Source: Minisyncoccota bacterium
GTDB taxonomy: Bacteria > Patescibacteriota > Minisyncoccia > Phycocordibacterales > UBA918
Assembly: GCA_041389045.1 (NCBI GenBank)
Contig: JAWKSQ010000002.1
Coordinates: forward strand, 23,898-87,897
DNA length: 64,000 nt
Reading direction: 5' to 3'
Numbering within the stretch: position 1 is the first letter of the stretch; the number at the start of each line of letters is the position of its first letter. The notes under the pieces were generated by a model. That model had not been told where the DNA came from and did no database searches. It worked only from the letters and a program-made list of their open reading frames with translations. The position numbers and the translations under genes are program-made. Of the stretch, positions 16,480-61,052 are shown piece by piece.

Positions 16480-16721
16480 ACAAACAAAATAAATATAATT
16501 ACCCCCGCAAGTACCCAAACTTGCTTGATTTAACTATTCTAACACATTTAGAATCGCCTCCCTGTTTATAACTTTCCAGTTTTCTGCTAGACTGTCACAC
16601 ACCGCCGCGGTGACAGTATAAAAGTAAACTGCTTTACTTTTATACGTTTCGCCAAGGCAACAGTGGACGATACGAACCTAGCGAGTCAGTTCACAAAAAA
16701 TCAAATTTTTGTTTTCAAAGT

Positions 16722-16831
16722 GCCGGAGTGGTGGAATGGTATAACGGTTCGATAGTCTCCCAGACTATCTCACCTCAAAAATCGTGTGCCGCAAGGCTTG
16801 AGGGCTAAAATAGTCTGGGAGACTATTTTAG
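16722..16831 (+). pseudogene. degenerate tRNA-Leu-like copy with paired CCC/GGG-loop hairpins
   Basis: It shares GTTTTCAAAGTGC(C/T)GGAGTGGTGGAATGGTATA and TGCCGCAAGGCTTGAGGG with tRNA-Leu(CAA). It carries ATAGTCT-CCC-AGACTAT (16752-16768) and CTAAAATAGTCT-GGG-AGACTATTTTAG (16805-16831) in place of a proper anticodon stem and T arm. Confidence 0.55.
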
Positions 16832-16932
16832 AAGGTTGCCAGCAAATTTATGACAAAAAGGAATAAATTGGTGACAACCTGAACAGAATTCGTAGAATTC
16901 AAGTCCCTTATAATATAGTTCGTTTTCAAAGT

Positions 16933-18081: not shown

Positions 18082-18130
18082 CTCGAGTAAAACGAAAACA
18101 CTTTGACACTGTCAAAGTGTTTTCGTGTTA

Positions 18131-18262
18131 GAAAGCAAATAGTTTTGCTTTCGTGCTCGAGCGGGAGACGGAGACATGTCGCTTTTCGACAGTCGAGTCG
18201 GGGTCGAGAACACTTAGTAGATTTAGAGCGAAGCGAATAAATATACTTAGTGATTCGTGACC
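18131..18262 (+). repeat. tRNA-linked mosaic structured repeat, unit A
   Basis: Conserved hairpin GAAAGCAAATAGTTTTGCTTTC, then CTCGAGCGGG (18156-18165), which is the reverse complement of the tRNA-Trp end CCCGCTCGAG (18077-18086). The core is GGGGTCGAGAACACTTAGTAGATTTAGAGCGAAGCGAATAAATATACTTAGTGATTCGTGACC. Confidence 0.8.
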
Positions 18263-18425
18263 GCAAAAAAGTGGACACAATGTATCCCGTTCCTGTAAGG
18301 AAAGAATCCTCGTGACCGCAAGAAAGTGGCCACAAGGTGTACTGGTCGTGTAACGACCGAAATTCTTCGTTAGTACTTAGTAGAATTAGAGCGAAGCGAA
18401 GAATTATACTTAGTAATTTGTGACC
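18263..18425 (+). repeat. mosaic repeat, unit B (beta segment plus second core)
   Basis: GTTCCTGTAAGGAAAGAATCCTCGTGACCGC, followed by GTACTTAGTAGAATTAGAGCGAAGCGAAGAATTATACTTAGTAATTTGTGACC. Confidence 0.75.
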
Positions 18426-18452
18426 ACAAAAGAAACTACACCAGATACCGGA

Positions 18453-19767: not shown

Positions 19768-19863
19768 GTTATCCTAATAGTATCACCTCCCTGGTTTGAA
19801 AACTGCAGAGAGTGTGGTAATTTATACCTTACTTACGGCTAGTAAGTGATGAAATGAATAATT

Positions 19864-20020
19864 GCGTCGGTACGGAAGCGGAAAGCGGGGGCAAACTGTA
19901 AGACTTGCACTTTGCGCACCGGGAAGTCTTTCTGACAGCGTTGTTTCCCACCGGAAACACAGTTTAAAGTCGCTACACGCGACAAGTCAGTAAATCTTTT
20001 CGATTCCCAGTCTTCTTTGG
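19864..20020 (+). pseudogene. degenerate tRNA-Tyr-like copy
   Basis: GCGTCGGTACGGAAGCGG...GGCAAACTGTAAGACTTGC parallels the tRNA-Tyr 5' half and its GTA loop. About 90 nt of hairpin-rich insert follows (GTTTCC-CACC-GGAAAC), then a T-loop remnant TTCGATTCCC. No acceptor 3' strand is present. Confidence 0.45.
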
Positions 20021-20057
20021 TTATTCAAAAGTTGTGAAGTGATACAATTAAATAAAT

Positions 20058-20172: not shown

Positions 20173-20334
20173 TCTAATGTGCGCCGGAGCAAGCAAATAG
20201 TTTTGCTTGCTTGAGGGATTCAAAAGCGCAGCGATGCCGAAGGCGAGCGAGCTGGGGTCGAGAGTACTTAGTAGAATTAGAGCGTAGCGAATAATTATAC
20301 TTAGTAACTCGTGACCGAATCCTTTCCTCCCGGC
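20173..20334 (+). repeat. tRNA-linked mosaic structured repeat, unit C (archetype)
   Basis: TGCGCCGG (20180-87) and GAGGGATTC (20213-21) are the reverse complement of the tRNA-Tyr 3' strands. They are split by AGCAAGCAAATAGTTTTGCTTGCT. The core ends in CTCGTGACC (20316). GAATCCTTTCCTCCCGGC (20317-34) follows. Confidence 0.85.
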
Positions 20335-21167: not shown

Positions 21168-21557
21168 CTAGAAAGTGGCAAAGATCTTTCTGTTGCCTGA
21201 ATCAATTCGAACCATACCACCATACGGCATTGGGATCTGCGGTTCTGTGTGACCAAAATCCATATTCTGAACAATAGGTATTTCTTTGTTGTAGGCACGA
21301 ACAATTTTTACAATTGTATCTTGCTGTTCCTTTCTGTACGCAACTCGTTCTTCAAGACTTCGCATGTTATCAAATTCACGTGCTTTAGCTCGTCCTACGC
21401 AAATACCCTTTACTCGCGAAAGTACACCTCGTTCCCCTAATGCACGGAAGAATCTCATAACATAATCAGAAGATGGTATCTCTTCTGAAGTTTCCATCAT
21501 AAGTACGATATCTTCAAATTGCTCTAGAGACGGGCTATCAACTCCGTGTCGCAACAT
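21168..21557 (-). CDS. LD-carboxypeptidase (S66/MccF-like), C-terminal fragment
   Basis: Contains MDFGHTEPQIPMPYGG. It continues from 21640-22203 after a 1-nt frameshift near 21643-21650. Confidence 0.75.
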   Translation of the reverse strand: MLRHGVDSPSLEQFEDIVLMMETSEEIPSSDYVMRFFRALGERGVLSRVKGICVGRAKAREFDNMRSLEERVAYRKEQQDTIVKIVRAYNKEIPIVQNMDFGHTEPQIPMPYGGMVRIDSGNRKIFATF

Positions 21558-21639
21558 CTCATCAATTGATTCTAGGCAACCACCCCAAAGAAGTCCCTCT
21601 GCACTTTTACTTCCATCCCACGACCAGCCTTCATTTGGT

Positions 21640-22203
21640 TCATACTCTCTCCTTATTCAGCTGTTCAACATCACCCCAATCTAATCCAATATCATTAAAA
21701 GACTTACTTGACATAAGTTCAAACTCTCCCTCATCAAACAAAGCGTGTCTGATGTACTCTACTGTATATGGATTCATTTCTTTCTGATGTGCAAACTGGG
21801 TGAATAGCGCGGCTCCGTAGAATGACGGTATTCCATTTAAAAACAGAAAGTTACAAAAATGTGAGTTATCACTGTATCCAAAAAATGGTTTTGTATTATC
21901 TACAAACGGTTTACTGAGAAGATTTTTGATATACGTTACTTGTATATCACCGCCAAGAGTTGATATAACTGCTTTAATTTCTGGATCAGAAAATGCAGCA
22001 ATGATATCATTAGCTTTTTCCTCAAGAGTAGCGTCGAGTATAGCTGTAGTTGGATACATTACAGGTTCAAGTTCAAATACTTCACGAAGGCGCTTAAGTC
22101 CCAAATCATGAACGTGTGGCCACACAGCTGACGCGGCAAAACTCGGTGACACAATTGCAACCTTATCCCCTTTCTTTAATTTGGGTATTTTTTTCATTTT
22201 CAT
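21640..22203 (-). CDS. LD-carboxypeptidase (S66/MccF-like), N-terminal fragment
   Basis: Contains KGDKVAIVSPS and the GYSDNSH nucleophile motif. The linking segment YEPNEGWSWDGSKSAEGLLWGGCLESIDEMLRHG is readable in another frame. Confidence 0.75.
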   Translation of the reverse strand: MKMKKIPKLKKGDKVAIVSPSFAASAVWPHVHDLGLKRLREVFELEPVMYPTTAILDATLEEKANDIIAAFSDPEIKAVISTLGGDIQVTYIKNLLSKPFVDNTKPFFGYSDNSHFCNFLFLNGIPSFYGAALFTQFAHQKEMNPYTVEYIRHALFDEGEFELMSSKSFNDIGLDWGDVEQLNKERV

Positions 22204-22233
22204 TACTACTTCAGTTTAACATAAGCAAAGTTT

Positions 22234-23072: not shown

Positions 23073-23128
23073 ATCTAATAATCATATCACGCAGTATGTA
23101 TTATCTATCAAGTTCAATGAGCAAAACA

Positions 23129-23164
23129 AATACCACAATTAATTACGTAATTAATTCTGGTATT
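23129..23164. promoter_or_regulatory. 36-bp palindrome, copy 1 (35/36 identical to copy 2)
   Basis: AATACCACAATTAATTACGTAATTAATTCTGGTATT. It lies just upstream of the promoter region of the minus-strand gene 22353-23072. Confidence 0.6.
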
Positions 23165-25642: not shown

Positions 25643-25651
25643 GAAATCATA

Positions 25652-25687
25652 AATACCACAATTAATTACGTAATTAATTGTGGTATT
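25652..25687. promoter_or_regulatory. 36-bp perfect palindrome, copy 2 (candidate operator/activator site)
   Basis: AATACCACAATTAATTAC|GTAATTAATTGTGGTATT. It ends 2 nt before the TTGACA at 25690. Confidence 0.6.
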
Positions 25688-32210: not shown

Positions 32211-32756
32211 TTATCGAGTCAATGTTTTCATTTTCTGACAGAAGTCAGTCAGCACAACCACGACTTTTTGAAGATCTTTTTTACTGGTTTTTTCACTAAG
32301 AGATAAGCGGATAGTTGCAGTAGCTCGTTGCTTATCCTTGGTCATGACTGCTACTACATGACTCAGTCCCCCTCCCGCTCCGGCACAAGCACTCTTGGTA
32401 CTAGCGGAGATGTCGTGTGAATCCAAAAAGACTACCGCGTATTCAGTGTCAAAGCCAGGCAGAGAAATATTTATATTATTTGCTAGTCGCTCTGTCCCTA
32501 CTGGACCATTAAGGACCGCTCCTGGCACCTGACTTAAAATATTTGCCATGGCTTCATCTCTCACTTTCTGCACCTTCAGAGCTCGCTTCTCGTAGGAAGC
32601 TTGGGCTAAAGATAAAGCCACAGCCGTACCAACTATTCCAGGCACATTCTCGGTCCCTGGTCTAAGTCCCCCTTCCTGTCCACCACCATAAGTAATCGGT
32701 GCAAAATCACTCAGTCTGCGAGAAGCTAATATCCCTATCCTTTTGGACCATGACAC
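32211..32756 (-). CDS. cysteine desulfurase (NifS/IscS-like), C-terminal fragment
   Basis: Contains GGGQEGGLRPGTENV and STKSACAG. It is joined to the middle fragment by a 1-nt indel near 32736-32746 (HGPKG|IGILA). Confidence 0.8.
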   Translation of the reverse strand: MSWSKRIGILASRRLSDFAPITYGGGQEGGLRPGTENVPGIVGTAVALSLAQASYEKRALKVQKVRDEAMANILSQVPGAVLNGPVGTERLANNINISLPGFDTEYAVVFLDSHDISASTKSACAGAGGGLSHVVAVMTKDKQRATATIRLSLSEKTSKKDLQKVVVVLTDFCQKMKTLTR

Positions 32757-33046
32757 TTACCAGCATCTAGCGCCATACTGTCGACACCGAGTTTGGCAAA
32801 AGCACAAGGAAGCCAGAGCGGAGCCTGCGCAGCATCTAGGTGAACTGAAATAGTTACTGAGTTTTTCTGGGCAAAATTTCTAATTACCCTCGTGAGTCGC
32901 GAGACGGGTTGCACTGTACCAACTTCACTATTGGCATAAGCCAATACCACCAGCACAGTTCGTGATGACAAGACTTTTTCCAAAGCTGGTATCGTAATAA
33001 GACCCACCTCATCCACCGCGACAAACTTTATTTTTACACCGAGCAT
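32735..33046 (-). CDS. cysteine desulfurase, middle fragment
   Basis: Contains LAYANSEVGTVQP and DAAQA...ALDAGKCHGPKG, which is the PLP-lysine region. Confidence 0.8.
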   Translation of the reverse strand: MLGVKIKFVAVDEVGLITIPALEKVLSSRTVLVVLAYANSEVGTVQPVSRLTRVIRNFAQKNSVTISVHLDAAQAPLWLPCAFAKLGVDSMALDAGKCHGPKG

Positions 33047-33414
33047 TTTAGCTTTGGCAAAAGTGACAAAATAGAAGGATGTTCAATTTCCGTTGTCACA
33101 ATCTCCATCTCTGTATACTTTTTCCCTGACGCTTTTAATTTTTCTATATAACCAAGTATGGCCAAATTGTTACTTTCAGTTCCACTACCGGTAAAAATCA
33201 CTCCGCTACTTTTAATCCCTAGTACAGTCGCCACTTCTTGCCTTGCCTCTTCCACCGCCAGGCGAGCTACCTGACCTTCTTTATGTATCGCACTTGGATT
33301 ACCAAAATTACTGGTGAAGTAAGGTTTCATCTTTGACAAAACCTTCGGATCAACTGGTGTAGCGGCAGCATTATCGAGGTAAATTCGCTTTTTTGGCTCG
33401 AGTTTTTTAGACAT
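33034..33414 (-). CDS. cysteine desulfurase, N-terminal fragment
   Basis: Contains IYLDNAAATPVDPKV, FGNPSAIH and TGSGTESNN. A frameshift lies at the T4/A4 run 33046-33049. Confidence 0.8.
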   Translation of the reverse strand: MSKKLEPKKRIYLDNAAATPVDPKVLSKMKPYFTSNFGNPSAIHKEGQVARLAVEEARQEVATVLGIKSSGVIFTGSGTESNNLAILGYIEKLKASGKKYTEMEIVTTEIEHPSILSLLPKLKCSV

Positions 33415-33519
33415 GACAAAAATCATGACATAGCGTGTCAAATATGTAAATCTCTGCTATACTCGCAGTACTTTTAATTATCAGCGCGCCTGAGTAGGCG
33501 TTTTTACGTATTACTACTT

Positions 33520-35019
33520 ATGAAAAAAGCAAAACCCGTCAAATCAAACATCATCAAGCGTCCACCGGTCGTCGTGGTTATGGGTCATATTGACCATGGC
33601 AAATCCTCTCTCCTGGACTATATACGCAAAAGTAATAGTGTCGCTGGCGAAGCTGGTGGCATTACTCAACACCTCTCTGCCTATGTCGCTAGCCATACTA
33701 CTAAGGAAGGTCAGAAAGAAACTATCACTTTCCTAGACACCCCTGGTCATGCCGCCTTCCAAAAGATGCGCCTACGTGGCGCTGACGTCGCTGACGTGGC
33801 TATTTTAGTAGTTTCAGCCGAAGACGGCGTGAAGCCACAGACTCTGGAGGCTTTAGAGTCTATCAAGCAAGCAAATATTCCGATGATTGTGGCTATCAAC
33901 AAAATCGACAAACCCGCTGCTGATATTCCTCGTACCCAATCTAGTCTCATCGAAAACGAAATCTACATTGAAGGGATGGGCGGAGACATTCCGTGGGCAC
34001 CAATCTCAGCCAAAACTGGCGAGGGTATAGACGACTTACTAGACTTAGTTGTCCTAACGGCCGACCTAGCGGAACTTAAAGGTGACGAATCAGCTCCAGC
34101 GGTTGGGCAGATTATTGAAGGTAAACTCGACGCCAAGCGTGGTAATACCGCCACCCTACTGATTACTGACGGGACTCTGCGAAGTGGCATGTTTATTGTT
34201 TCTGGCACAGCTTTTGCTCCCGTCCGGATTATGGAGGATTTCCTTGGCAAACCACTCAAGGAAGCTAGCCTATCTACTCCAGTAGGAATTGTTGGTTTTA
34301 ATGAAATCCCTAAAGTGGGCGCCAAGTTCCATACTGTCACTAGCAAGAAAGAGGCTGAGTCAGCGGTCGCTGAAGCCTCTCTAGCTATCGTGGCACCAGA
34401 ACGAGTCAAGTCTACCTTGCCAACTATCCCAATTCTGATTAAAGCGGACGTACTTGGTACTATCGAAGCAATTGAACATGAACTACAGAAGTTCACTTCT
34501 GAGCGAATTGCGGTTCGCGTGATTGGTAAAGGGGTTGGTGACATCACTTCCAATGATATTCAGAATGTTAGTGCGACCAAAGACTCGATTGTGGTTGGTT
34601 TTAATGTGAAAGTGGAAAGACAAGCCGCTGAATTAGCCGAAAGACTAGGTGTTGAGATTGATACTTTTTCGATTATCTACGAACTATCTGACTGGCTAAA
34701 TACCGCTCTCAAGAATCGCACCCCGAAAATTGAAGAGATGGTTAAAACCGGTAAGGTTAAAATCATCCGACACTTTAGTACCCAAAAGTACACCCACGTA
34801 CTTGGTGGACGAGTAGAAGAAGGTCACATCATGATGAATCAACGAGTTAAAATCTTCCGTCGTGATATTGAGATTGGTAAAGGCGTGATCAAGAACCTGC
34901 AACAACAAAAATCTGACGTCCAAAAAATTGACGAGGGTGAATTTGGTATGCAACTAGAAACCAAAACGGAAATCGCTCCTGGTGATTACTTAGAACCATA
35001 CGACTTAACTATTACCTAG
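33520..35019 (+). CDS. infB: translation initiation factor IF-2 (short form)
   Basis: Contains PPVVVVMGHIDHGKSSLLD, DTPGH and NKID, followed by the IF-2 C-terminal domains. Confidence 0.95.
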   Translation: MKKAKPVKSNIIKRPPVVVVMGHIDHGKSSLLDYIRKSNSVAGEAGGITQHLSAYVASHTTKEGQKETITFLDTPGHAAFQKMRLRGADVADVAILVVSAEDGVKPQTLEALESIKQANIPMIVAINKIDKPAADIPRTQSSLIENEIYIEGMGGDIPWAPISAKTGEGIDDLLDLVVLTADLAELKGDESAPAVGQIIEGKLDAKRGNTATLLITDGTLRSGMFIVSGTAFAPVRIMEDFLGKPLKEASLSTPVGIVGFNEIPKVGAKFHTVTSKKEAESAVAEASLAIVAPERVKSTLPTIPILIKADVLGTIEAIEHELQKFTSERIAVRVIGKGVGDITSNDIQNVSATKDSIVVGFNVKVERQAAELAERLGVEIDTFSIIYELSDWLNTALKNRTPKIEEMVKTGKVKIIRHFSTQKYTHVLGGRVEEGHIMMNQRVKIFRRDIEIGKGVIKNLQQQKSDVQKIDEGEFGMQLETKTEIAPGDYLEPYDLTIT

Positions 35020-35425: not shown

Positions 35426-35497
35426 GTCCTGGTGGCGAAGTGGTTAACGCTCGCGGTTTGCAAAACCGCCACACGTGGGTTCGACTCACTCAGGACT
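35426..35497 (+). tRNA. tRNA-Cys(GCA), T arm non-canonical
   Basis: GTCCTGG...GCGGT TTGCAAA ACCGC...GTGGGTTCGACTCAC TCAGGAC T. The T loop appears 2 nt short. Confidence 0.6.
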
Positions 35498-35526
35498 CAC
35501 GAAATAGAAGCCTTGGCTTTTATTTC

Positions 35527-35699
35527 GTGAGTCCTGGAGCAATGCGCCTGCGCGCATTGCGGGTGGGAGTCGAACAGCGGAGTCATGTTGGGGCTTTTCA
35601 TTAAGCCTCAACAGACGAGCTGCGTCCAGCGTACTTATGAGCGTAAGCGAATTAGTAAAAGCGGGACGACTCCAAGTGACCGACTCCCATTAGGGACAG
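35527..35699 (+). repeat. tRNA-linked mosaic structured repeat, unit D (divergent core)
   Basis: GTGAGTCCTG (35527-36) is the reverse complement of the tRNA-Cys end CAGGACTCAC. The hairpin GCAATGCGC-CTG-CGCGCATTGC follows, then GGGAGTCGAAC. The core is GCGGAGTCATGTT[GGGGCTT..AAGCCTC]...GTACTTATGAGCGTAAGCGAATTAGTAAAAGCGGGACGACTCCAAGTGACC. Confidence 0.7.
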
Positions 35700-35804: not shown

Positions 35805-35847
35805 CCTATAGAAGTAAACAACCACCGGACTTAGGTCCGGTGGCTTT

Positions 35848-36450
35848 GGTTCATCCTAGTCGGATGAACCATCTGCCGGCTTAAGCCGGCTGATCTGTAG
35901 TTGCTAGGAGATTAGTTTGTTAAATAGTGATGGTTGATCAACTTGATTATGATGATCTTGATGCTTCACGTACCGACGGATAATCATTTCATCTAGACCG
36001 ATCGTAGAGACGAAATAACCTCTGGCCCAGAGTGATTCTTTTTCATAGAGACCATGAGCACGTTTTATTTTCTTCTTCATCCAAGCTGAGCTTTTACCTT
36101 TAATTATTTGCATCAGGTACGAGACTGAATCCCTCGGAGAAGCACTCAGTATTAAGTGGATATGATCATCTTGGATGTTTAGTTCGATTATTTCCCAGTG
36201 TCTGTATTTAGTGATTGATTCAAAAGTACGTCTCAATTCATCTTTAACCTTTTGTGGTCCTAGTACCTTGCCTCGGTATTTTGGAGTCCAGACGAGATGG
36301 TATTTCATCTCGTAGTAACAATGTGCTAGTGTTTTAATGGTAGGTTTGCGCATACGTATTTAGTTATTACTAAAGCCAGTTGGGCGTCACCGGCTTTAGT
36401 ATATCTGTTGCCTTCAACGTACTCTCTGGCTGAAGCCGGAGGTTTTTAGA
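35848..36450 (-). mobile_element. IS200-type insertion sequence (approximate ends)
   Basis: A single Y1 transposase gene is flanked by subterminal hairpins of related sequence: GCCGGCTTAAGCCGGC (35875-35890) and GGCTGAAGCCGG (36431-36442). Further hairpins are GGTTCATCC..GGATGAACC and TACTAAAGCC..GGCTTTAGTA. The exact ends were not determined. Confidence 0.6.
35904..36353 (-). CDS. tnpA: IS200/IS605 family Y1 (HUH) transposase TnpA
   Basis: Contains YHLVWTPKYRGKVL, HUH (DHIHLIL) and the catalytic-Tyr region WARGYFVSTIG. Confidence 0.95.
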   Translation of the reverse strand: MRKPTIKTLAHCYYEMKYHLVWTPKYRGKVLGPQKVKDELRRTFESITKYRHWEIIELNIQDDHIHLILSASPRDSVSYLMQIIKGKSSAWMKKKIKRAHGLYEKESLWARGYFVSTIGLDEMIIRRYVKHQDHHNQVDQPSLFNKLIS

Positions 36451-36489
36451 TAATAAAACAACCAGCTAAAAGCTGGTTGTTTTATTTCA

Positions 36490-36619
36490 GGTGCCCAGAG
36501 CGGGAATTGAAAGGCGGAGCGATGTGAGCTTGCGAACCAGCGAGCCGGGGTCGAGAACACTTAGTTGATTTGGAGTCGAAGACGAACAAATCTACTTAGT
36601 GATTCGTGACCAATTCCCG
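36490..36619 (+). repeat. tRNA-linked mosaic structured repeat, unit E
   Basis: GGTGCCCAGAGCGGGAATTGAA (36490-36511) is the perfect 22-nt reverse complement of the tRNA-Leu(TAA) end (35785-35806). The core is GCGGAGCGATGTGAGCTTGCGAACCAGCGAGCCGGGGTCGAGAACACTTAGTTGATTTGGAGTCGAAGACGAACAAATCTACTTAGTGATTCGTGACC, followed by AATTCCCG. Confidence 0.85.
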
Positions 36620-36630
36620 TGTATTGCTAG

Positions 36631-36724
36631 CGGGAATTGAAGAGGTTAGTCAGATACCTTAGGAACACTTGGACTAAAGTATCGACAACCTGTACTGAAC
36701 TCGTAGAGTTCAATTCCCTACCAC
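36631..36724 (+). repeat. degenerate second unit E2
   Basis: CGGGAATTGAA ... GAACACTTGGACTAAAGTATCGACAACCTGTACTGAACTCGTAGAG ... TTCAATTCCCTACCAC. The E+E2 block is bracketed by the 19-nt exact direct repeat AGCTGGTTGTTTTATTTCA (36471-36489 and 36730-36748). Confidence 0.6.
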
Positions 36725-37286: not shown

Positions 37287-37395
37287 GAACTATACTCATC
37301 ACCGATAGCTCACCTCCTTGGTGGGCTGTCATTAATTTAGACATATCGAATCTGGCCTTGTTTTAACAAAATATTTATTGTACACTTCTTCGCAC

Positions 37396-37468
37396 GCGCC
37401 TTTAGCTCAGTTGGTAGAGCAGCTCCCTCTTGGAGACGGTCCAAGGTTCGAGCCTTGAAGGCGCACCA
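37396..37468 (+). tRNA. tRNA-like gene (Lys-CTT-like) with encoded CCA and non-canonical anticodon and T loops
   Basis: GCGCCTT TA GCTC AGTTGGTA GAGC A GCTCC CTCTT GGAGA CGGTC CAAGG TTCGAG CCTTG AAGGCGC A CCA. It has a 5-nt anticodon loop and a 6-nt T loop. Function is doubtful, or indel errors are present. Confidence 0.4.
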
Positions 37469-37960
37469 AGGTGAATACAAAAACACTGGTTTTTTAAACC
37501 AGTGTTTTTGTATTCAGGAAGCAAACTGCTTTGCTTTCGTACCTTGGTGCGAGTCGGAGACATATTTCTTTTCTTGCCTAGAAAAGAAATAGTCGAGACC
37601 GGGGTGAGAAAGTGTCTAAACACTTTCGCAAGACCTTTTGAGAAATTTATTTCCAAAAGGTGTATCGCTTCTGTAAGAAGAAAGTTCTTATGAGCGTAGC
37701 GAATTAGAAACTTGACCCCGCAAAAAACTGCCACCCGGCAGTTTTTTAATATGTGCGCCTTCAAGGTGTAGCTTTTCGTTAAGAAAAGCGTTACACGGCT
37801 CGAAAAGCTTTTGCGATAGATTCGACTGAAAGGAGAATATATCCAAAAGGTGTACAGTTCCTGTAAGGAAAGAGCCATTGTTTTTATGTATTGTGTAGAA
37901 ATAATTATATTAAGTAACTCGTGACCACAAAGCGTTACACGGCTCGACATAAAGAAACCC
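37469..37960 (+). repeat. composite mosaic repeat region F
   Basis: A 17-bp perfect hairpin is followed by GAAGCAAACTGCTTTGCTTTC. CCTTGGTGCG (37542-51) and GTGCGCCTTCAAGG (37753-66) are both reverse complements of the tRNA-like 3' end. The short core variant is GGGGTGAGAAAGTGTCTAAACACTTTCGCAAGACC. Beta segments AAAAGGTGTA...CTGTAAG(G/A)AA(A/G)A occur twice. The terminal sequence is TAAGTAACTCGTGACC. Confidence 0.7.
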
Positions 37961-38017
37961 TTTCTGACTCATAAACGAGAATGGTCCAGAAATAAATTTT
38001 CTGGACCAACCGATTTG

Positions 38018-38099
38018 TGCGCGGGAGAGGACTTGAACCTCCACAGATTGCTCTATTAGTTCCTAAGACTAACGCGTCTACCAATTTCGCCACCCGCGC
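38018..38099 (-). tRNA. tRNA-Leu(TAG)
   Basis: Minus strand reads GCGCGGG TG GCGA AATTGGTAG ACGC G TTAGT CTTAGGA ACTAA, a long variable arm, GGAGG TTCAAGT CCTCT, CCCGCGC A. Confidence 0.9.
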
Positions 38100-38153
38100 A
38101 GGTGGATGTGCGCAAGAGTATAGCATATTATTATAAGTTTGCGAGAGTTTACC

Positions 38154-39191
38154 TTAACTCGTTGCTCGCAACCTTGCTTTCTTAAATTGCCTTGGTCTAA
38201 GGAATTTATTGTAATATCTAGCAAACTTTTTCTTAAAGCCAGCTGGAGCTTTGTCGGTGAGCTGACACCAAGTAGAACAATAACCACCCCGCTTCTCTAT
38301 ACAGTCATCACAACCAAGAAAAAGCACGTGGGCAGATCTGATTTTTGCAGTGATAGTGCGTGTCACTTTTAGCTTCATGACATAAATGGCAGTGAGAAAT
38401 AATTTCTTCCCAATTGTCTCACCCAACCTTTCATCAAACACAAAATTCTTGCCTTTAAATTTGTTAGGCAAGCCTTCACGTTCTACTTGGTGCTTATAGT
38501 CAATCACTCCACCCTTAAGGTGCTTCACATTAGTATAGCCTTGATGTTTAAGCCAGGCACTTGCCTTCTCACAACGAATACCACCAGTACAGTAAAGGGC
38601 GATCTTTTTATTCTTATGGACAGTTAGCATCTTGGGTACCATTTGTAGTTCTTCCCGGAAAGTGTCAACGTCAGGTGTGATTGCTCCTTCAAAGTGTCCG
38701 ATCTCACTTTCGTAGGCATTTCGCATATCTATCACCACGGCCTCAGGATCTTCTAGATAAGCATTCATTTCCGAGGCCGTCAGATACTCGCCAGTATTAC
38801 TAGGATCAAAACTACTATCATCGAGTCCATCAGCCACAATTTTCTTTCTGACTTTAATCGTTAGTTTATAGAATGATGGTGCGTCCCCTTCCTCTACAGC
38901 AATCTTGTATGGTACTCCTTTTAACTCCGGTAGACTTTGCACAAAGTTATCAAACTTATCCCAGTTTTCTTTCGGAACATTCATCTGAGCATTAATTCCT
39001 TCATGAGCGACGTAGATACGCCCAAGACAATCCATCTCAGTCCAAGCCATATATAACTTTTCTCTAAAAGCATCCGGATCGGCAATCTTTACGTAGCGAT
39101 AAAAAGACAAGGTGGTACGTGGGCGAGTATCAGCCAAAGTGGCTTGTTTTTTCTCCGCCCGCGAACGCATGTCTTTTGTAATAGTTGGCAT
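38154..39191 (-). CDS. trhO: rhodanese-domain tRNA uridine(34) hydroxylase TrhO (UPF0176/YceA family)
   Basis: Contains LSFYRYVKIADP, CTGGIRCEKASAWLK and a C-terminal Cys cluster. The start is taken at MPTITKD. Confidence 0.8.
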   Translation of the reverse strand: MPTITKDMRSRAEKKQATLADTRPRTTLSFYRYVKIADPDAFREKLYMAWTEMDCLGRIYVAHEGINAQMNVPKENWDKFDNFVQSLPELKGVPYKIAVEEGDAPSFYKLTIKVRKKIVADGLDDSSFDPSNTGEYLTASEMNAYLEDPEAVVIDMRNAYESEIGHFEGAITPDVDTFREELQMVPKMLTVHKNKKIALYCTGGIRCEKASAWLKHQGYTNVKHLKGGVIDYKHQVEREGLPNKFKGKNFVFDERLGETIGKKLFLTAIYVMKLKVTRTITAKIRSAHVLFLGCDDCIEKRGGYCSTWCQLTDKAPAGFKKKFARYYNKFLRPRQFKKARLRATS

Positions 39192-39458
39192 AAATAAATA
39201 GAAGTTAGGTGAGACAAAAATGGTACCAGAGTAGGTGTCAGTAAGCAAATGATGGAACTAAATTAATGGTGCAAAGTGATACTCCCAATAAATGACAGAG
39301 GAGTGCCCTTTGTATTTTAATCTTATGAAGACAGGGCGAAAGCTTCGCTTTCGCCCTGTCTATCTACCAATTAACCCTACAAACTCCTCCCTACACCCAA
39401 AATACCTATCTAAACTCAAAATAACCTTATTTATAAACCTAGAATGTATGCTTAAAGC

Positions 39459-41649: not shown

Positions 41650-42096
41650 TTAAGGTGTGCCTGGATTAGGACCTCCTACAGGTGGAGTACCACCGGGATT
41701 AGGACCTCCTACAGGTGGAGTGCCACCGGGATTAGGACCTCCTACAGGTGGAGTGCCACCGGGATTAGGTAATCTGAATACTTCGTTACAGCCGGACGCC
41801 GATGGATTTTGAGCGCAGTCTAGCTCTTGATTAAGACCAAAAGTTCCCGCTGCGATACTTAAAATAGCAAAAGCTGAGGCCATTACGACCAAACCAATAA
41901 TACCAAAGGTGATATGTTTCTTCCCTTCTGCGCGAGCAGATTCATTATCAGCATTCATGATGTAGAGCGCACAACCATAAATAAAAACTAAAAAAGCAAT
42001 ACCCGAGAGCAGTGAGATGGTAGGAAAAAGAATCGCCGTGTTTAGTCTATCAACTAGTTTTCCAGCCTCAATCGTAGCGGATTCTTGTGGTGACAT
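41650..42096 (-). CDS. TrbC/VirB2-like pilin-like membrane protein with C-terminal PGGTPPVGGPN repeats
   Basis: Two TM helices flank NADNESARAEGKK. The tail has three 30-bp tandem repeats (41668-41765) encoding NPGGTPPVGG. Confidence 0.65.
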   Translation of the reverse strand: MSPQESATIEAGKLVDRLNTAILFPTISLLSGIAFLVFIYGCALYIMNADNESARAEGKKHITFGIIGLVVMASAFAILSIAAGTFGLNQELDCAQNPSASGCNEVFRLPNPGGTPPVGGPNPGGTPPVGGPNPGGTPPVGGPNPGTP

Positions 42097-55953: not shown

Positions 55954-56086
55954 TTCTTATATAGTGTCAAGCACACAAAGACGCATGTGTCAATATCGTG
56001 ACATATGTATAAGTTACCTGTATGATTACAGAGCTTATTAATTACGGTACTCAGGGGTGGGTACGAAGGTTGTTTAATACGAATTT

Positions 56087-56524
56087 ATGGAACAAATAAA
56101 ATCAGACGTTGAATCCTTTGCACGTATTCGTGTAGTTGGTGTTGGTGGTTCTGGAAAGAACGCCGTTAACCACATGGTATCCCGTAAAGTTAAGGGAGTG
56201 GAGTTTATTGCTATCAATAGTGACTCACAAGACCTACATCACTCATTTGCTAAAAAGAAAATTCACATTGGTAAGAATCTAACTCGTGGTCTTGGTGCCG
56301 GTGGTAATCCTGACATGGGTCGTCGTGCTGCTGAAGAGACGCGTGAAGAAATTGCTAACGCGATCAAGGGCTCTGACAGATCTTCATCACTGGTGGTATG
56401 GGTGGTGGCACTGGTACCGGATCAGCTCCGGTTGTCGCCAAGATTGCTCGAGGAAAGTGGAGCACTGACTGCTGGTGTCGTGACTAAGCCTTTCCTATTT
56501 GAAGGACAGAACGTATGCGACTAG
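56087..56524 (+). CDS. ftsZ: FtsZ, N-terminal fragment (contains an internal compensated frameshift pair)
   Basis: [10 protein letters not shown] is present. The tubulin signature [23 protein letters not shown] is readable only in the alternative frame between about 56375 and 56452. Confidence 0.85.
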
Positions 56525-57330
56525 CTCTCCAAGGTATCGAAGAGCTAAAAAAAGAAGTGGACGCCCTCATCACCATCCCTAACGACCGACTCCTAGCTAT
56601 CGTGGATCGCGAAACTACTGTTCGCAACGCCTTTGAACAATGTGACAATGTCCTCAAGCAAGCGGTTGAGGGTATTTCCGACCTCATCACTATGCCTGGT
56701 ATTATCAACGTCGACTTCGCTGACATTCGTAGCGTGATGGAAAATGCCGGCTCTGCTCTCATGGGTGTCGGTATTTCGTCTGGCGAAAAGCGGGCTGAAG
56801 AAGCTGCTCAAGCGGCTATCAATTCCCCACTCCTTGAAGTATCCATCACTGGAGCCAAGGGTGTCCTCTTCGCTATCGCTGGCGGAGACGACCTAGCGAT
56901 GCTCGAAATCCAAGACGCTGCCCGAGTTATTACTGAGTCTATCGATCCTCACGCTAAGGTGATCTTCGGAGCCATCAAGGACGACAAACTTAAGAAAAAT
57001 GAAATCAAGGTAACTGTCATCGCTACTGGCTTCCCAGAGGAACACGCTAATCCGCAAAACTCTATCTCGAGAAGAGCTCCTGCAGCTATCACTCGTCCAG
57101 AACCAGAAGATGAGGTAGTGGCGCCAGAGTCTAAGGGTAGAATCTTCAATTCCCTTTCCATGCCAAAGAAGACTGAACAGGAACCAACTCCAGAACCAGT
57201 TGTAAACAACTCTGTACGCCATAACGACATGCCTAAGCGTGATCCAAAGCCAGTTGATCCGATTGATGAAGATGATGATGGAGACTGGGGTGCGGTTCCA
57301 GCATTTTTGCGTAGGTCAAAGCTTAAATAA
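56515..57330 (+). CDS. ftsZ: FtsZ, C-terminal fragment
   Basis: [28 protein letters not shown]... with a C-terminal DWGAVPAFLRR peptide. It joins the upstream fragment at the A-run near 56508. Confidence 0.9.
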   Translation: MRLALQGIEELKKEVDALITIPNDRLLAIVDRETTVRNAFEQCDNVLKQAVEGISDLITMPGIINVDFADIRSVMENAGSALMGVGISSGEKRAEEAAQAAINSPLLEVSITGAKGVLFAIAGGDDLAMLEIQDAARVITESIDPHAKVIFGAIKDDKLKKNEIKVTVIATGFPEEHANPQNSISRRAPAAITRPEPEDEVVAPESKGRIFNSLSMPKKTEQEPTPEPVVNNSVRHNDMPKRDPKPVDPIDEDDDGDWGAVPAFLRRSKLK

Positions 57331-57340
57331 GCTTTGACTA

Positions 57341-57492
57341 GCAAAAATGCGAACCGCAAAGCGGAGCGATGTGAGTCGCCTCTTCCCAGGACGACGAACC
57401 AGCGAGCTGGGGTCGAGAACACTTAGTAGATTTCGCACGTAGTGCAGAAATATACTTAGTGATTCGTGACCGGTTCCTACTTTTGCGTTTGC
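57341..57492 (+). repeat. mosaic structured repeat, unit H1 (no tRNA nearby)
   Basis: The outer arms GCAAAAATGCGAACCG and CGGTTCCTACTTTTGCGTTTGC are complementary. The core is GCGGAGCGATGTGA[GTCG..CGAC]GAACCAGCGAGCTGGGGTCGAGAACACTTAGTAGATTTCGCACGTAGTGCAGAAATATACTTAGTGATTCGTGACC. Confidence 0.85.
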
Positions 57493-57518
57493 ATAATTAA
57501 AATAATTTAGCTTCCAAA

Positions 57519-57651
57519 AAAGCGGTGCCGACGGGCGTAGCGATGTGAACCGCCCCATCTTAGGGCGGTGAACCAGCGAGCCGAGTCGACAAGTACTTAG
57601 TTTTTTATGAACGTAGAGATATAAAAAGCTTAGTAACTTGTGACCGGTTCC
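57519..57651 (+). repeat. mosaic structured repeat, unit H2
   Basis: GCGTAGCGATGTGA[ACCGCCC-CATCTTA-GGGCGGT]GAACCAGCGAGCCGAGTCGACAAGTACTTAGTTTTTTATGAACGTAGAGATATAAAAAGCTTAGTAACTTGTGACCGGTTCC. Confidence 0.8.
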
Positions 57652-57682
57652 AGCCTGCTAAATAAATCTATTTAAATTCCAG

Positions 57683-57726
57683 CCAAAACAAACCCCAACA
57701 CCTCAGTGTTGGGGTTTGTTTTGTGG
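57683..57726 (+). terminator. terminator after the ftsZ-repeat block
   Basis: CCAAAACAAACCCCAACAC-CTC-AGTGTTGGGGTTTGTTTTGTGG. Confidence 0.75.
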
Positions 57727-59316: not shown

Positions 59317-59388
59317 GGCCCTATCGTATAACGGCTAGTACACTTGGTTCTCATCCAAGAAATCGGAGTTCGATTCTCCGTAGGCACG
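59317..59388 (+). tRNA. tRNA-Glu(CTC) with a defective acceptor 3' strand
   Basis: GGCCCTA TC GTAT AACGGCTA GTAC A CTTGG TTCTCAT CCAAG AAAT CGGAG TTCGATT CTCCG TAGGCAC. The last 7 nt give 2 mismatches with GGCCCTA. The displaced copies read TAGGGTCAC, which would pair fully. Confidence 0.6.
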
Positions 59389-59426
59389 CGTACAAAAACG
59401 AGCATCTCGAAAGAGGTGCCGTTTTT
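59385..59426 (+). repeat. 42-bp direct repeat, left copy (tRNA-Glu end plus terminator)
   Basis: CACGCGTACAAAAACGAGCATCTCGAAAGAGGTGCCGTTTTT is identical to 61011-61052. Confidence 0.9.
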
Positions 59427-59430
59427 GTTG

Positions 59431-59568
59431 CGTGAGACTACGAGTAAACCTGCCAGTGGCAGGCTTACGTGAGAATCGAAGCTGTTGCCTGCTAGATTAA
59501 AAGCGGAGCGAATTAATCTAGCGACAACGGGTACTGAAACTGTAAGTTTCGATTCTCCGTAGGGTCAC
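59431..59568 (+). repeat. tRNA-linked mosaic repeat, unit G (short core variant)
   Basis: GCGTGAGACTACG is followed by the hairpin GTAAACCTGCC-AGT-GGCAGGCTTAC. GAGAATCGAA (59471-80) is the reverse complement of the T loop/stem. The core is CTAGATTAAAAGCGGAGCGAATTAATCTAG. A perfect tRNA-Glu 3' end GTTTCGATTCTCCGTAGGGTCAC follows at 59546-68. Confidence 0.7.
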
Positions 59569-59572
59569 ATAG

Positions 59573-59601
59573 TTGACATTTATTATTATTTATGTTATCA
59601 T
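59573..59601 (+). promoter_or_regulatory. sigma70-like promoter
   Basis: TTGACA-N17-TATCAT. Confidence 0.65.
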
Positions 59602-59648
59602 ATTGCCTGGTAGCAAATTTCACAACCCAACAAACGAAAGGGGGGCTA

Positions 59649-59954
59649 ATGGCCACACATAAATACATCTACTGGCGTCCCGATATGCAACCCAACGAGA
59701 AAGGTGAGACGTATGCCAACGTCCATCTCCTCGTTGGATACAACCAGGCATCCATCACCGATTTTCGGAAGATGGCTGACGAACTTCGCGAGACGTTCCC
59801 ACAGGCGACCGATGACGACATCTGCGGAGGAAAGGTTTTCAAATCCTCCTACGTCAATGGACACACCATCATCACCTGGGGCGCGCACATCCCGAAGGGC
59901 GAATACCCTGGCTGGCACCAGAAGGACGACGGTCGCATGGAGTATTGTTGTTAA
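59649..59954 (+). CDS. hypothetical protein (101 aa), G+C-rich orphan
   Basis: A G-rich RBS (AAAGGGGGG) precedes ATG 59649, and a terminator follows directly. No motif recognised. Confidence 0.6.
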   Translation: MATHKYIYWRPDMQPNEKGETYANVHLLVGYNQASITDFRKMADELRETFPQATDDDICGGKVFKSSYVNGHTIITWGAHIPKGEYPGWHQKDDGRMEYCC

Positions 59955-59957
59955 CCA

Positions 59958-60010
59958 ACCCACTACTTCGAAGCAGAAACTCACTGCTTCGGTGGTGGGT
60001 TTTCTGTTTT
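59958..60010 (+). terminator. rho-independent terminator
   Basis: ACCCACTACTTCGAAGCAG-loop-CTGCTTCGGTGGTGGGT followed by TTTCTGTTTT. Confidence 0.8.
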
Positions 60011-60237
60011 ATACTGATTCTAATACCCTTAGGGAGTTACTTTATAAACTTAATTTGTTTAATTTCAACATATTTCAGCGTTAACTAGATCCTTTCCGAG
60101 CAAATGCCAAGCAGATAGCTCGCTGATTAATTGGTTCCAATTTTATCCCACTTGGGTTACAACGACATAAAAATAATAAAATTAGAAAACCCGCGATATA
60201 CCTTGCGGGTTTTCGCGGGCTACTGCTACTGGGAAGC

Positions 60238-60837
60238 TTAAGCGATCAGGAACTTAGGAGGATTCCAGTCTCGTTCTTCCGTTTCCGGTCGCATGGTTCC
60301 ACATGCCGAGTACCTGATCCCACGAAACGTCGGGACCGGATACGCCGAGATGTAGTAGTACTGGCGAAACCACAGTTCAATGTCAGCCAGATGCCACATT
60401 CCCGAGAGACCGCGTGCAACGACCTTCGCAATGATGAGTTGCGGGGCGTTATCAAGCGAGTCTCCTGCAAGCATGAGCATGCCTCGAAAGAACACGGTCT
60501 TGACTTCGAAGTCGTCACGATTCCTCGCCAAGTATGCAAGGGATCCGAGGTTATAAACCTCATCACGTTGTTTTTTGGAGAGTGAGTCCCAGTGACGTCT
60601 TGCAATGTCTTCCAGAAGATCGGCCTGAAGCATGTGGCCGTCAGCATCGAACTCAAGACCCGGCCGATGCTTCTTGTTCGGGACGATGATCTCACGATGA
60701 CGGAGAACAGCCTGTTCACCGAAACGCAACTTCAAAGCCTCACGGAAAACCTCCTCCGCATAGGTGAGGCCAGCACTGAGTTGCAGTGCATCCAAAAACT
60801 GACACCCCTCAACAGGGCGAGATTGCAAACCTGACAT
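60238..60837 (-). CDS. hypothetical protein (199 aa), G+C-rich orphan
   Basis: This is the longest ORF here; the overlapping ORFs are treated as shadows. A terminator hairpin AAAACCCGC..GCGGGTTTT lies at 60188-60216. No motif recognised. Confidence 0.6.
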   Translation of the reverse strand: MSGLQSRPVEGCQFLDALQLSAGLTYAEEVFREALKLRFGEQAVLRHREIIVPNKKHRPGLEFDADGHMLQADLLEDIARRHWDSLSKKQRDEVYNLGSLAYLARNRDDFEVKTVFFRGMLMLAGDSLDNAPQLIIAKVVARGLSGMWHLADIELWFRQYYYISAYPVPTFRGIRYSACGTMRPETEERDWNPPKFLIA

Positions 60838-61010
60838 GAACTTCTCCTCTATGGAGTCTTTCAGGGCGACATGCCACGAAAGGTAACCACTTTGATTACT
60901 AGATTATTATAACACAGTTTTAACTAATTTGCAATACATACTACGCTGAATTTTAGTCTAAATTGCTTTATTTCTTTAAGAACCTGGTTCCAATTCGTAC
61001 TACTTAGGGT

Positions 61011-61052
61011 CACGCGTACAAAAACGAGCATCTCGAAAGAGGTGCCGTTTTT
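61011..61052 (+). repeat. 42-bp direct repeat, right copy
   Basis: Identical to 59385-59426. It is preceded by TTAGGGT, a remnant of the tRNA-Glu acceptor 3' strand. Confidence 0.9.

Follow-up and report, generated by a model that had tools for sequence, protein, structure and literature searches.

A lysine tRNA gene with probable consensus errors and nested, target-matched flank units behind it in a Patescibacteria contig

Introduction

In a contig from a Minisyncoccota bacterium, a tRNA-like gene with two short loops is followed by a mosaic of about 490 nucleotides (nt) composed of hairpins, repeats and segments complementary to the 3' end of the gene itself. The question raised by this locus is whether gene and mosaic together form a non-canonical RNA system, or whether the gene is a tRNA gene like any other and the mosaic something that is found behind tRNA genes in general. 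The gene starts at position 37396 of a stretch of 64,000 nt (GenBank assembly GCA_041389045.1, contig JAWKSQ010000002.1, positions 23,898 to 87,897 of the forward strand), which is referred to below as the window and in which all positions are given.

A first-pass annotation of the window left three options for the gene, i.e., a decayed tRNA-Lys, a tRNA-like element belonging to a repeat system, or an artefact of indel errors. The best joint explanation, to which we assign a probability of about 0.6, is that of an ordinary tRNA-Lys gene with likely consensus errors, behind which nested, eroded tRNA-3'-flank units are found. The first and last options were thus on target, as the gene is a syntenic orthologue with two small deletions and similar indels are found in nearby conserved genes, while the second is not supported, the Lys gene being the target that is copied by the repeats rather than a component of them. 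The family of flank elements to which the units belong is widespread, structurally constrained, matched to its targets and apparently undescribed.

The lysine tRNA gene

ARAGORN identified nine tRNA genes in the window and called the one at 37396-37468(+) "tRNA-???", with an anticodon of 2 nt. The cloverleaf is recognized by the Rfam tRNA model (RF00005) with 53 bits, compared with a gathering score of 29, and the Rfam alignment gives an anticodon loop of 5 nt (CTCTT) and a T loop of 6 nt (TTCGAG), i.e., the loop lengths originally reported are found again. A 7-nt anticodon loop with U33, a 3-nt anticodon and a purine at position 37 is absent from this gene, while the orthologues all read CTCTTAA; a 7-nt T loop on a 5-bp stem, which in the relative L008 reads TTCGAGC + CCTAG, is also absent.

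The identity of the gene follows from its position. The cluster order rbfA - tRNA-Cys - tRNA-Leu(TAA) - tRNA-Lys(CTT) - tRNA-Leu(TAG) - trhO is conserved, the four tRNA genes adjoin trhO in 5/5 relatives, and rbfA-infB is also found beside the cluster in three of them (L001, L003 and L004). These three relatives have TrhO identities of ~76%; the other two, L007 and L008 (62-64%), were taken from a scan of a genome collection with TrhO, in which the matches listed were mostly from Bacteroidota and the useful ones were L006-L009 and L015. At this cluster, Lys(CTT) is a canonical 74-nt tRNA gene in all five relatives. Because the gene at 37396 holds the same cluster position as these canonical genes, positions 37396-37465 are, as judged from sequence and synteny, an ordinary tRNA-Lys(CTT) gene in a genome of Candidatus Paceibacterota, a member of Patescibacteria (also named candidate phyla radiation, CPR), and no separate tRNA-like entity. 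In all four stems (acceptor, D, anticodon and T), in the CTT anticodon and in promoter context and synteny, the gene agrees with its orthologues in the five relatives, which are bacterial tRNA-Lys(CTT) genes without an encoded CCA (RF00005); it differs from them, as assembled, in the 5-nt anticodon loop, the 6-nt T loop and a chance CCA after the discriminator base. Compared with all relatives, AA is missing from the anticodon loop (CTCTTAA to CTCTT) and one C is missing from GAGCCCTTG; in the T arm, alignment of TTCGAGCCCTAG / GAGCCCTAG of L008 with GAGCCTTG of the window places a contraction of CCC to CC.

The gene had been singled out as the sole CCA-encoding tRNA-like gene. It is true that only one of the nine tRNA genes in the window has CCA behind it, but the bases that follow the discriminator differ in every relative (CTAGAG, CAGAAG, CAATTA, CATCAA and CAATGG in the alignment of the five orthologues), and for this reason the CCA is, on that alignment, part of an unconserved trailer. 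The trailers vary between relatives, yet each remains complementary to a downstream segment of its own locus, referred to as anti-1. It is very improbable that the gene encodes a functional, non-canonical CCA-ending tRNA-like RNA of the repeat system, e.g., a primer, tag or decoy. Such an RNA would account for a gene that scores as a tRNA despite its odd loops, that alone in the window has CCA behind it, and whose CCA is covered by anti-1; in contrast, 5/5 orthologues are canonical and lack the CCA, the complementary segments are found behind ordinary tRNAs of 17 types and include trailer bases that are absent from a mature RNA, and the variant with a 5-nt loop was not seen at any other locus examined.

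Consensus errors or decay

The short loops of the Lys gene are, as compared with the orthologues, two small deletions that are probably indel errors in the assembly consensus. The indel error rate of this assembly is appreciable. The gene for a class-V aminotransferase (32211-33441(-)) is spread over three frames by two frameshifts, one of which is the loss of a G from a GGG run in the conserved GPKG motif. In trhO (38154-39248(-)), a 1-base deletion is followed 85 nt on by a change of CC to CCC, such that the 28 codons between these sites are out of frame; the other frame reads EEIISHCHLCHEAKSDTHYHCKNQIC, i.e., the near-invariant Cys/His cluster ISHCHLC...HYHCKNQIC, which is intact. Compensating indels around codons that are intact in the other frame form a pattern of sequencing errors rather than of evolutionary decay. 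Three more genes, ftsZ (56078-57330(+)), relA/spoT (13543-15086(+)) and that of an LD-carboxypeptidase (S66 peptidase, 21168-22215(-)), are each split between adjacent overlapping open reading frames (ORFs), and the frameshifts that were inspected at the level of single bases are mostly located at short homopolymers. Homopolymers of at least 8 nt are present in the relatives and none is found in the window. Similarly, tRNA-Cys(GCA) at 35426-35498(+) departs from the five relatives by an added C, by two bases lost from CTCCCAC and by a C-to-T change, which together leave the T stem broken, and its downstream anti segment, GGGTGGGAGTCGAAC, still encodes the canonical CTCCCACCC of the relatives.

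Some data weigh against consensus errors. Five indel events are found in ~150 nt of tRNA-Cys and tRNA-Lys, compared with ~4 in 4.1 kb of neighboring coding sequence, which is far above the prediction of a uniform error rate; the loss of a whole AA dinucleotide is atypical of a homopolymer slip; and exact look-ups with infB, TrhO, rbfA and a 135-aa ORF found no reads or independent assembly of this genome. The lesions in tRNA-Lys(CTT) may instead be real, in which case the gene would have become a pseudogene very recently, with AAG decoded by a second tRNA-Lys encoded elsewhere in the genome, and the lesions in tRNA-Cys would be equally real. This explanation, which we consider unlikely, would accommodate the much denser indels in the two tRNA genes and the other decayed partial tRNA copies that lie near intact genes in this genome, upstream of Leu-CAA, Tyr and Gln. 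In addition, the acceptor pair 6:67 has undergone a compensatory change from C-G to T-A, also seen in L008, which implies that the Lys gene was selected until recently and would fit a young lesion. Yet the same region harbors frameshifts in genes that are not plausibly all dead, e.g., ftsZ, as well as the conserved trhO codons that are intact in the shifted frame; loss of the sole tRNA-Cys(GCA) would be lethal, and the promoter-proximal sequence and synteny of the Lys gene are those of a functional orthologue. Consensus errors are therefore the explanation that is retained here. Miscalls at methylation motifs, considered on the grounds that the missing AA falls in CTTAAG and the T-loop change lies near GANTC, were rejected as their source, with motif counts of 18 and 233 compared with ~20 and ~240 expected as estimated by hand from base composition.

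Units behind tRNA genes

Repeat finding revealed related modules behind tRNA-Trp, Tyr, Cys, Leu(TAA) and Lys of the window. Complete units follow the plan X - t - rc(X) - core - X, in which X denotes the 3' portion of the tRNA gene with its trailer, rc(X) the reverse complement of X, and t a hairpin. The start of X lies midway through the T loop (in some subtypes, at the last few tRNA bases), and X continues through the 3' end into the trailer. In the worked examples, the first half of a canonical unit is composed of X, the t hairpin, whose right arm is the trailer complement, and the complement of the acceptor 3' strand, while the second half contains a conserved hairpin with a CUGC loop, referred to as hp2, the complement of the T-stem 3' strand and half of the T loop, the core and X again, i.e., rc(X) is usually split by hp2. 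The second X is an exact direct repeat, which is 38 nt long in L088 and may reach 20 nt into the trailer. Both flanks, inverted and direct, copy the local tRNA 3' region over up to 41 nt and differ between tRNA types, and the units are strictly co-oriented with their tRNA.

Public collections were scanned with the most conserved part of the unit, GGGTCGAGAA-N8-38-ATTCGTGACC, and this pattern was found in at least 120 metagenome contigs. Among the matches listed, ~110/126 share the surrounding conserved blocks, ~80/126 have a same-strand tRNA that ends ~60-290 nt upstream (mostly 70-130 nt), and the tRNA genes with a unit behind them are of 17 types. A single match in a viral contig looks like a chance match in coding sequence. 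The match between unit and target is specific: in 63 non-redundant units, the longest exact match between the direct repeat after the core and the own tRNA has a median of 16 nt, compared with 5 nt for other tRNA types, and a direct repeat of at least 12 nt is found with 40/63 own tRNAs and with 0/315 tRNAs of other types. For the inverted segment the medians are 11 nt with the own tRNA and 6 nt with others. The number of units at the Lys locus varies between relatives from zero (L008) to one (L001 and L003) and two (L004). The mosaic described originally at the Lys locus is thus real, but the description understated its extent, as the arrangement is a property of a family that is found behind many tRNA genes in many genomes. 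Literature searches on the motif strings, on CPR tRNA repeats and on miniature inverted-repeat transposable elements (MITEs) found nothing relevant.

Two metagenome loci (L115 and L126) have a unit behind an apparent transfer-messenger RNA (tmRNA, ssrA) gene, recognized by eye on the basis of a region resembling a tag and a 3' end resembling that of a tRNA. In both, the copies of X, direct as well as inverted, match the 3' end of that gene.

The alpha core

The main core type, referred to as the alpha core, has a three-way junction as its RNAalifold consensus, obtained with 35 aligned copies. Helix P3 is formed by rc(X) with X and is followed by a GAAA junction strand, while P4 is a 3-bp helix of GNC with GN'C, in which the middle pair varies freely (GC, AU, CG, UA). 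The core further contains a purine internal loop with GGA opposite GA, a hairpin (Pa) with a bulged A, and a helix, GGUCGAGAA/UUCGUGACC, in which a G.U pair is found next to an A.G mismatch and which is capped by a variable hairpin (Pb).

A covariance model built from the 35-copy alignment (R1) identified 154 copies at E <= 1e-5 in 100 sources. On the R1 alignment, which was fitted to the model so that the pairing figures lean towards structure (MAFFT-based counts agree), 93.8% of the cells are paired, compared with 72.8% in shuffled alignments, and 750 cells are compensatory, compared with 181; the observed values were reached in 0/500 shuffles, and pairing falls to 27-49% in controls with slid partners. 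The G.U pair of P5 is retained in 135/145 copies, which implies that the tRNA-sense strand is the strand that folds. The type of Pb hairpin is specific for the genome rather than for the locus.

No Rfam match was obtained at E values up to 5 in 18083-18450 or 57330-57700, and no relevant one in 37300-38150. Readings of the alpha core as a hammerhead, hepatitis delta virus (HDV) or twister ribozyme or as a K-turn were rejected, because the junction strands and registers do not fit and Rfam matches are absent; specifically, the hammerhead core is not compatible with junction strands of GAAA / G(G) / none. Application of R1 to control loci from Bacteroidota gave nothing convincing.

In the whole window, R1 with filters off found seven alpha cores, all on the + strand, of which the copy at the Lys locus is the weakest (Table 1). 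The two tandem cores that lie behind ftsZ have a closing stem GAACCG/CGGTTC in place of the tRNA-derived sequence, and a 39-nt stretch is 95% identical between 36533 and 57395. At least two further core types share the layout of the unit. The beta-1 type is composed of AAGCTTTTGAGATAGA...CCAAAAGGTGTAC and a hairpin with a GUA-containing loop (37805-37870 of the window, L001 and L172), and a related type ends in CGACAACCTGTAC (36640-36720 of the window, L003 and L129).

The mosaic behind tRNA-Lys

Table 1. Features of the Lys locus and alpha cores in the rest of the window.
Feature	Position	Strand	Description and basis
tRNA-Lys(CTT) orthologue	37396..37465	+	ARAGORN, Rfam, synteny, alignment to canonical orthologues
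Trailer CCAAGG	37466..37471	+	"CCA" is its first three bases; pairs with anti-1
t1 hairpin	37473..37515	+	~20 bp, A/T-flanked, intrinsic-terminator-like apex of the X:anti-X helix; predicted fold
hp2 hairpin	37516..37541	+	AG-GAAGCAAA-CUGC-UUUGCUUU-CGU, CUGC loop; many metagenome copies
anti-1, CCTTGGTGCG	37542..37551	+	Exact complement of CGCACCAAGG (37462-71), i.e., last 4 nt of the tRNA and trailer
Degenerate alpha core	37543..37638	+	Covariance model R1, 16.6 bits, E ~0.01; weak but significant
P4 of the degenerate core	37553-55 with 37597-99		GTC with GAC
Pa of the degenerate core	37560-93		
C block of the degenerate core	37601-10		GGGGTGAGAA
Pb of the degenerate core	37611-24		
D block of the degenerate core	37625-35		TTCGCAAGACC
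Beta fragment 1	37648..37684	+	CCAAAAGGTGTAT, then hairpin CTTC-TGTAA-GAAG; repeat family D17
Alpha-core 3'-half fragment	37685..37717	+	Pb loop TATGAGCGTAGCGAATTAG and D-like ACTTGACC; compared with 20270-20316, 35640-35690 and L181
t2 terminator-like hairpin	37722..37747	+	AAAAAACTGCC-ACCC-GGCAGTTTTTT; predicted fold
anti-2, GTGCGCCTTCAAGG	37753..37766	+	Exact complement of 37453-66 (CCTTGAAGGCGCAC): T-stem 3' strand, acceptor 3' strand, discriminator
hp2' hairpin	37767..37795	+	Inserted between anti-2 and anti-3; predicted fold
anti-3, GGCTCGA	37797..37803; second copy 37941-47	+	Complement of T loop TCGAGCC (37448-54)
beta-1 core, AAGCTTTTGCGATAGA...CCAAAAGGTGTAC	37805..37881	+	Then hairpin TTCC-TGTAA-GGAA, then decayed direct copy of the tRNA T-arm region, AAGAGCCATTG
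Alpha-core 3'-end fragment	37898..37926	+	Pb 3' arm and D block ACTCGTGACC; repeat family D3
Terminal TAAGTAACTCGTGACC	37911-26		Repeat family D3
Direct repeat of 37788-37803	37932..37947	+	hp2' 3' arm and anti-3
Alpha core	18154-18271	+	Behind tRNA-Trp
Alpha core	20212-20325	+	Behind tRNA-Tyr
Alpha core	35563-35676	+	Behind tRNA-Cys
Alpha core	36500-36620	+	Behind tRNA-Leu(TAA)
Two tandem alpha cores	57347-57480, 57521-57654	+	Behind ftsZ, no tRNA nearby

The mosaic behind the Lys gene is composed of two to three nested, partly eroded tRNA-3'-flank units. In order, an eroded alpha unit closed by anti-1 is followed by alpha and beta fragments, by a beta-1 unit closed by anti-2 and anti-3, and by more fragments. 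The single-strand fold of 37440-37960 has a predicted energy of -202 kcal/mol (z = -13.3 compared with shuffles), and the 3' part of the tRNA pairs in this predicted fold in nested order with anti-1, anti-2 and anti-3.

Most of the parts had been noted in the first-pass annotation and were recovered here. The two segments said to be complementary to the 3' end of the gene are exact complements, and a third, anti-3, was found besides. By chance, 0.12 matches of the anti-1 kind are expected per window, with at least two matches in 2/100 shuffles, while the expectation for anti-2 is 0.01 per window and none of 100 shuffles produced it. Covarying equivalents of anti-1 are found in L001, L003 and L004, and a segment homologous to anti-2, ACATGTGCGCCTCAA, in L001. 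The shortened core variant corresponds to the R1 match in Table 1. Both proposed terminator-like hairpins, t1 and t2, appear in the predicted fold, but a simple terminator scan flagged neither. The two beta segments (37648-84 and 37838-74) and their copy at the tRNA-Trp locus (18273-18309) fall into repeat families D17, D7 and D10, and the terminal sequence was likewise confirmed as a repeat-family member. The hp2 hairpin is also found at 18130-18155 and 20188-20212 (repeat family D4), and the beta-1 module behind tRNA-Leu(TAA) in L001 as well as in L172.

There is a negligible probability that the mosaic arose in assembly, from collapsed or chimeric repeats, or that its complementarity is due to chance. 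The assembly is demonstrably error-prone and its tRNA-Leu(TAG) is inverted relative to L001, L003, L004 and L008, but relatives assembled independently from short reads have the same architecture, as do at least 120 metagenome contigs; the chance expectation for anti-2 is 0.01 per window and the z value of the fold is -13.3. The artefact reading is already refuted by these independent loci.

Two other readings of the region were tried. The minus-strand ORF 37402-37950 (182 aa) was rejected as a gene, as it has no Pfam match, is antisense to the tRNA and the hairpins, and lies in a region that is not collinear in relatives. The tiling of X by anti-2 and anti-3 gave an ambiguous outcome when used as an arbiter between a 6-nt and a 7-nt T loop.

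Insertion element or cis-acting RNA

With respect to the origin of the units, we infer, at slightly less than even odds, that they are miniature site-specific insertion elements. A circular or hairpin-folded single-strand intermediate, [t - rc(X) - core - X], would recombine with chromosomal X and would thereby yield exactly X - t - rc(X) - core - X. The tRNA gene would stay intact and gain t as an intrinsic terminator, and the insert would be bounded by direct repeats. The folded tRNA-sense strand would be recognized by a trans-acting enzyme, and the stem of X with rc(X), once folded, would resemble the target in double-stranded form. An insertion is in line with the variable copy number at the Lys locus (0, 1 or 2 among relatives), with the copies behind ftsZ, with the genome-specific Pb type and with the reach of the repeats into the trailer.

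Several findings are difficult to reconcile with such an element. No recombinase, transposase, REP-associated tyrosine transposase (RAYT; REP, repetitive extragenic palindrome) or TnpA could be tied to the units, and no integrase is found within or next to them. The copy numbers at the Lys locus suggest gain or loss, without precise pairs of filled and empty alleles. It is hard to see how X and rc(X) would become matched to 17 different tRNAs, and compensatory changes as numerous as these fit a functional structure of long standing better than a MITE that has spread recently. The cores are scarcely more similar within a contig (identity 0.515) than between contigs (0.475). Finally, in the "empty" tRNA genes of L008 the last 4-5 nt of the tRNA are already part of a terminator hairpin, and some of the anti pairing may accordingly be native to the terminator.

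These findings bear on a tentative alternative in which the flank elements are immobile and act in cis as RNA of the CPR tRNA and tmRNA transcription units, i.e., as a terminator combined with a module for 3' processing, stability or regulation. The RNA would possibly be a new ribozyme or a protein-binding RNA, in which rc(X) may pair alternately with the tRNA 3' half and the downstream X. The strong compensatory covariation, the G.U pair and purine internal loops that are conserved on the tRNA-sense strand, the strict co-orientation and the position immediately behind the tRNA are all in line with such a role, as is the observation that copies are about as diverged within a genome as between genomes. 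The elements are also found behind apparent tmRNA genes, which need the same end-processing enzymes, and theta ribozymes offer a precedent (see below). However, the core is separated from the tRNA by a strong terminator-like hairpin with a U run and would be transcribed only by read-through, and the direct repeats often extend ~20 nt into the trailer, which resembles the footprint of an insertion rather than a functional need. In addition, the copy number at one orthologous locus varies from 0 to 2, copies behind ftsZ lack a tRNA, and no Rfam ribozyme or RNA family is matched. The insertion element is kept as the preferred, if uncertain, account of how the units arose.

It is also conceivable, albeit rather doubtful, that the units form an unrecognized class of CPR elements, composed of a folded core (of at least three families) and a long locus-specific segment complementary to the adjacent tRNA or tmRNA 3' half. 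Such a class may be a guide-bearing miniature mobile element that copies its target both ways on insertion, or else an RNA of a new kind, structured or catalytic, targeting tRNA 3' ends; anti-1, anti-2 and anti-3, nested as they are behind tRNA-Lys, may in that case be working parts rather than debris.

Comparison with known systems

Theta ribozymes, which are minimal HDV-like ribozymes, process tRNA 3' ends in gut phages (Kienbeck et al. 2024, PMC10879173). The likeness to the flank elements is that of an abundant small structured RNA motif found systematically downstream of tRNA genes, and this placement makes a role of the flank elements in tRNA 3'-end biology plausible. In theta ribozymes the cleavage site abuts the tRNA, the fold is the HDV double pseudoknot and flanking target copies are absent. 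In contrast, the alpha core is a three-way junction that is located 70-130 nt downstream, behind a terminator hairpin, and is flanked by target copies. No match was found between the alpha core and the Rfam models of HDV, hammerhead, twister, pistol and hatchet ribozymes.

Integrative elements insert at the 3' ends of tRNA and tmRNA genes, where they are bounded by att direct repeats, and degraded or miniature forms such as cis-mobilizable elements (CIMEs) are known. The flank units likewise have a direct repeat of the tRNA 3' part with the tRNA left intact and supplied with a replacement terminator, and they share apparent tmRNA targets and tandem accretion with these elements. They differ in that they are only ~130-250 nt long and lack an integrase, carry an inverted target copy and a conserved folded core, and in that one core family serves at least 17 different tRNA targets.

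REP sequences and the bacterial interspersed mosaic elements (BIMEs), palindrome-associated transposable elements (PATEs) and MITE-like repeats are structured intergenic repeats. As in these families, the flank units are short, non-coding, modular, rich in hairpins and present in multiple copies, both within the window and within and across genomes, and they are located at gene 3' ends with strand-specific folding. Intrinsic terminal inverted repeats with a short target-site duplication, as in MITEs, are not found; instead, the terminal repeats are copied from the local target, the association with tRNA 3' ends is near-exclusive and the hairpins are kept by compensatory change.

Folded single-strand recombination sites are known from the attP(+) hairpin of the CTX phage, which is used by XerCD, and from the attC sites of integrons. 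Here the likeness is that of a hairpin that mimics a target, and the asymmetric branch formed by hp2 could mark the strand as the extrahelical bases do in attC. The target of the flank units is a tRNA gene, rather than dif or attI, and the resemblance is one of layout only.

Other modules and neighboring genes

The neighbors of the Lys locus are infB, rbfA, an IS200-type tnpA and trhO. The TrhO of the window has 100% identity to an NCBI protein (MEZ4195288.1) encoded on a 237-kb contig of a Candidatus Paceibacterota metagenome-assembled genome. The infB gene (33520-35019(+)) encodes a short protein of 499 aa without the long N-terminal region of a typical bacterial IF-2; this length is kept in relatives, which fits a reduced CPR genome. 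tRNA-Leu(TAG) (38017-38099(-)), with its promoter and terminator (37960-38153), lies on the strand opposite to the rest of the window cluster. The four tRNA genes of the cluster are co-oriented in L001, L003, L004 and L008, and in L007 tRNA-Cys is opposite to the other three. An ORF for an HNH_3-type endonuclease is found inside the same tRNA cluster, next to tRNA-Leu(TAA), in L004 (7371-7865) and L007 (~5340-5810).

The tnpA gene (35904-36353(-); Y1_Tnp, E = 7e-33) belongs to an element of the IS200/IS605 type (35810-36455) that is inserted between tRNA-Leu(TAA) and an older terminator, which is followed by a perfect 24-nt anti segment, CAGGTGCCCAGAGCGGGAATTGAA, at ~36487-36510. This tnpA was rejected as the mobilizing enzyme of the units, as the end hairpins of the insertion sequence (GCCGGCTTAAGCCGGC type) are unrelated to the cores.

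Diverged partial 5' copies of tRNA-Leu(CAA), Tyr and Gln are found at 16708-16932, 19852-20057 and 2948-2987, respectively, ~195-211 nt upstream of the intact genes. In the partial Leu(CAA) copy, the anticodon-stem region is interrupted by a hairpin whose reverse complement forms a terminator-like hairpin at the place of the T arm. A module of a beta-2 type, with GGTGACAACCTGAAC, the hairpin GAATTC-GTA-GAATTC and AAGTCCCT, precedes the intact Leu(CAA) gene.

At 59385-61052, a 1.6-kb insert is flanked by an exact 42-nt direct repeat composed of the end of tRNA-Glu(CTC) and its terminator. Neither of the two ORFs in the insert has a Pfam match, and the insert looks like a small island integrated at a tRNA 3' end; the stretch 59440-59570 contains a beta-like module together with a tRNA-Glu T-arm copy. 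A 37-nt near-perfect palindrome, AAATACCACAATTAATTACGTAATTAATT(C/G)TGGTATT, occurs at 23128-23164 and 25651-25687 in copies that are 97% identical and bracket 2-3 genes at a distance of 2.5 kb. The ORF 41650-42096(-) contains three tandem 33-nt repeats that encode a Pro/Gly-rich peptide, and has no family assignment.

Implications

From the above discussion, the tRNA-like gene of the window serves as a warning: this metagenome-assembled genome contains many small indels, so that no biological meaning should be attached to its odd loops, frameshifts and "pseudogenes". The flank elements are another matter. They take up a large share of the scarce non-coding DNA in very small CPR genomes, are absent from Rfam and from the literature that was searched, and have a fold that is kept by compensatory evolution; in many environmental genomes they follow most types of tRNA gene as well as apparent tmRNA genes. 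If they are mobile, they would represent homing to tRNA genes by an element that carries both orientations of its target; if they act as RNAs, they would suggest that a major uncultured lineage uses an as yet unrecognized step in termination or in the formation of tRNA 3' ends.

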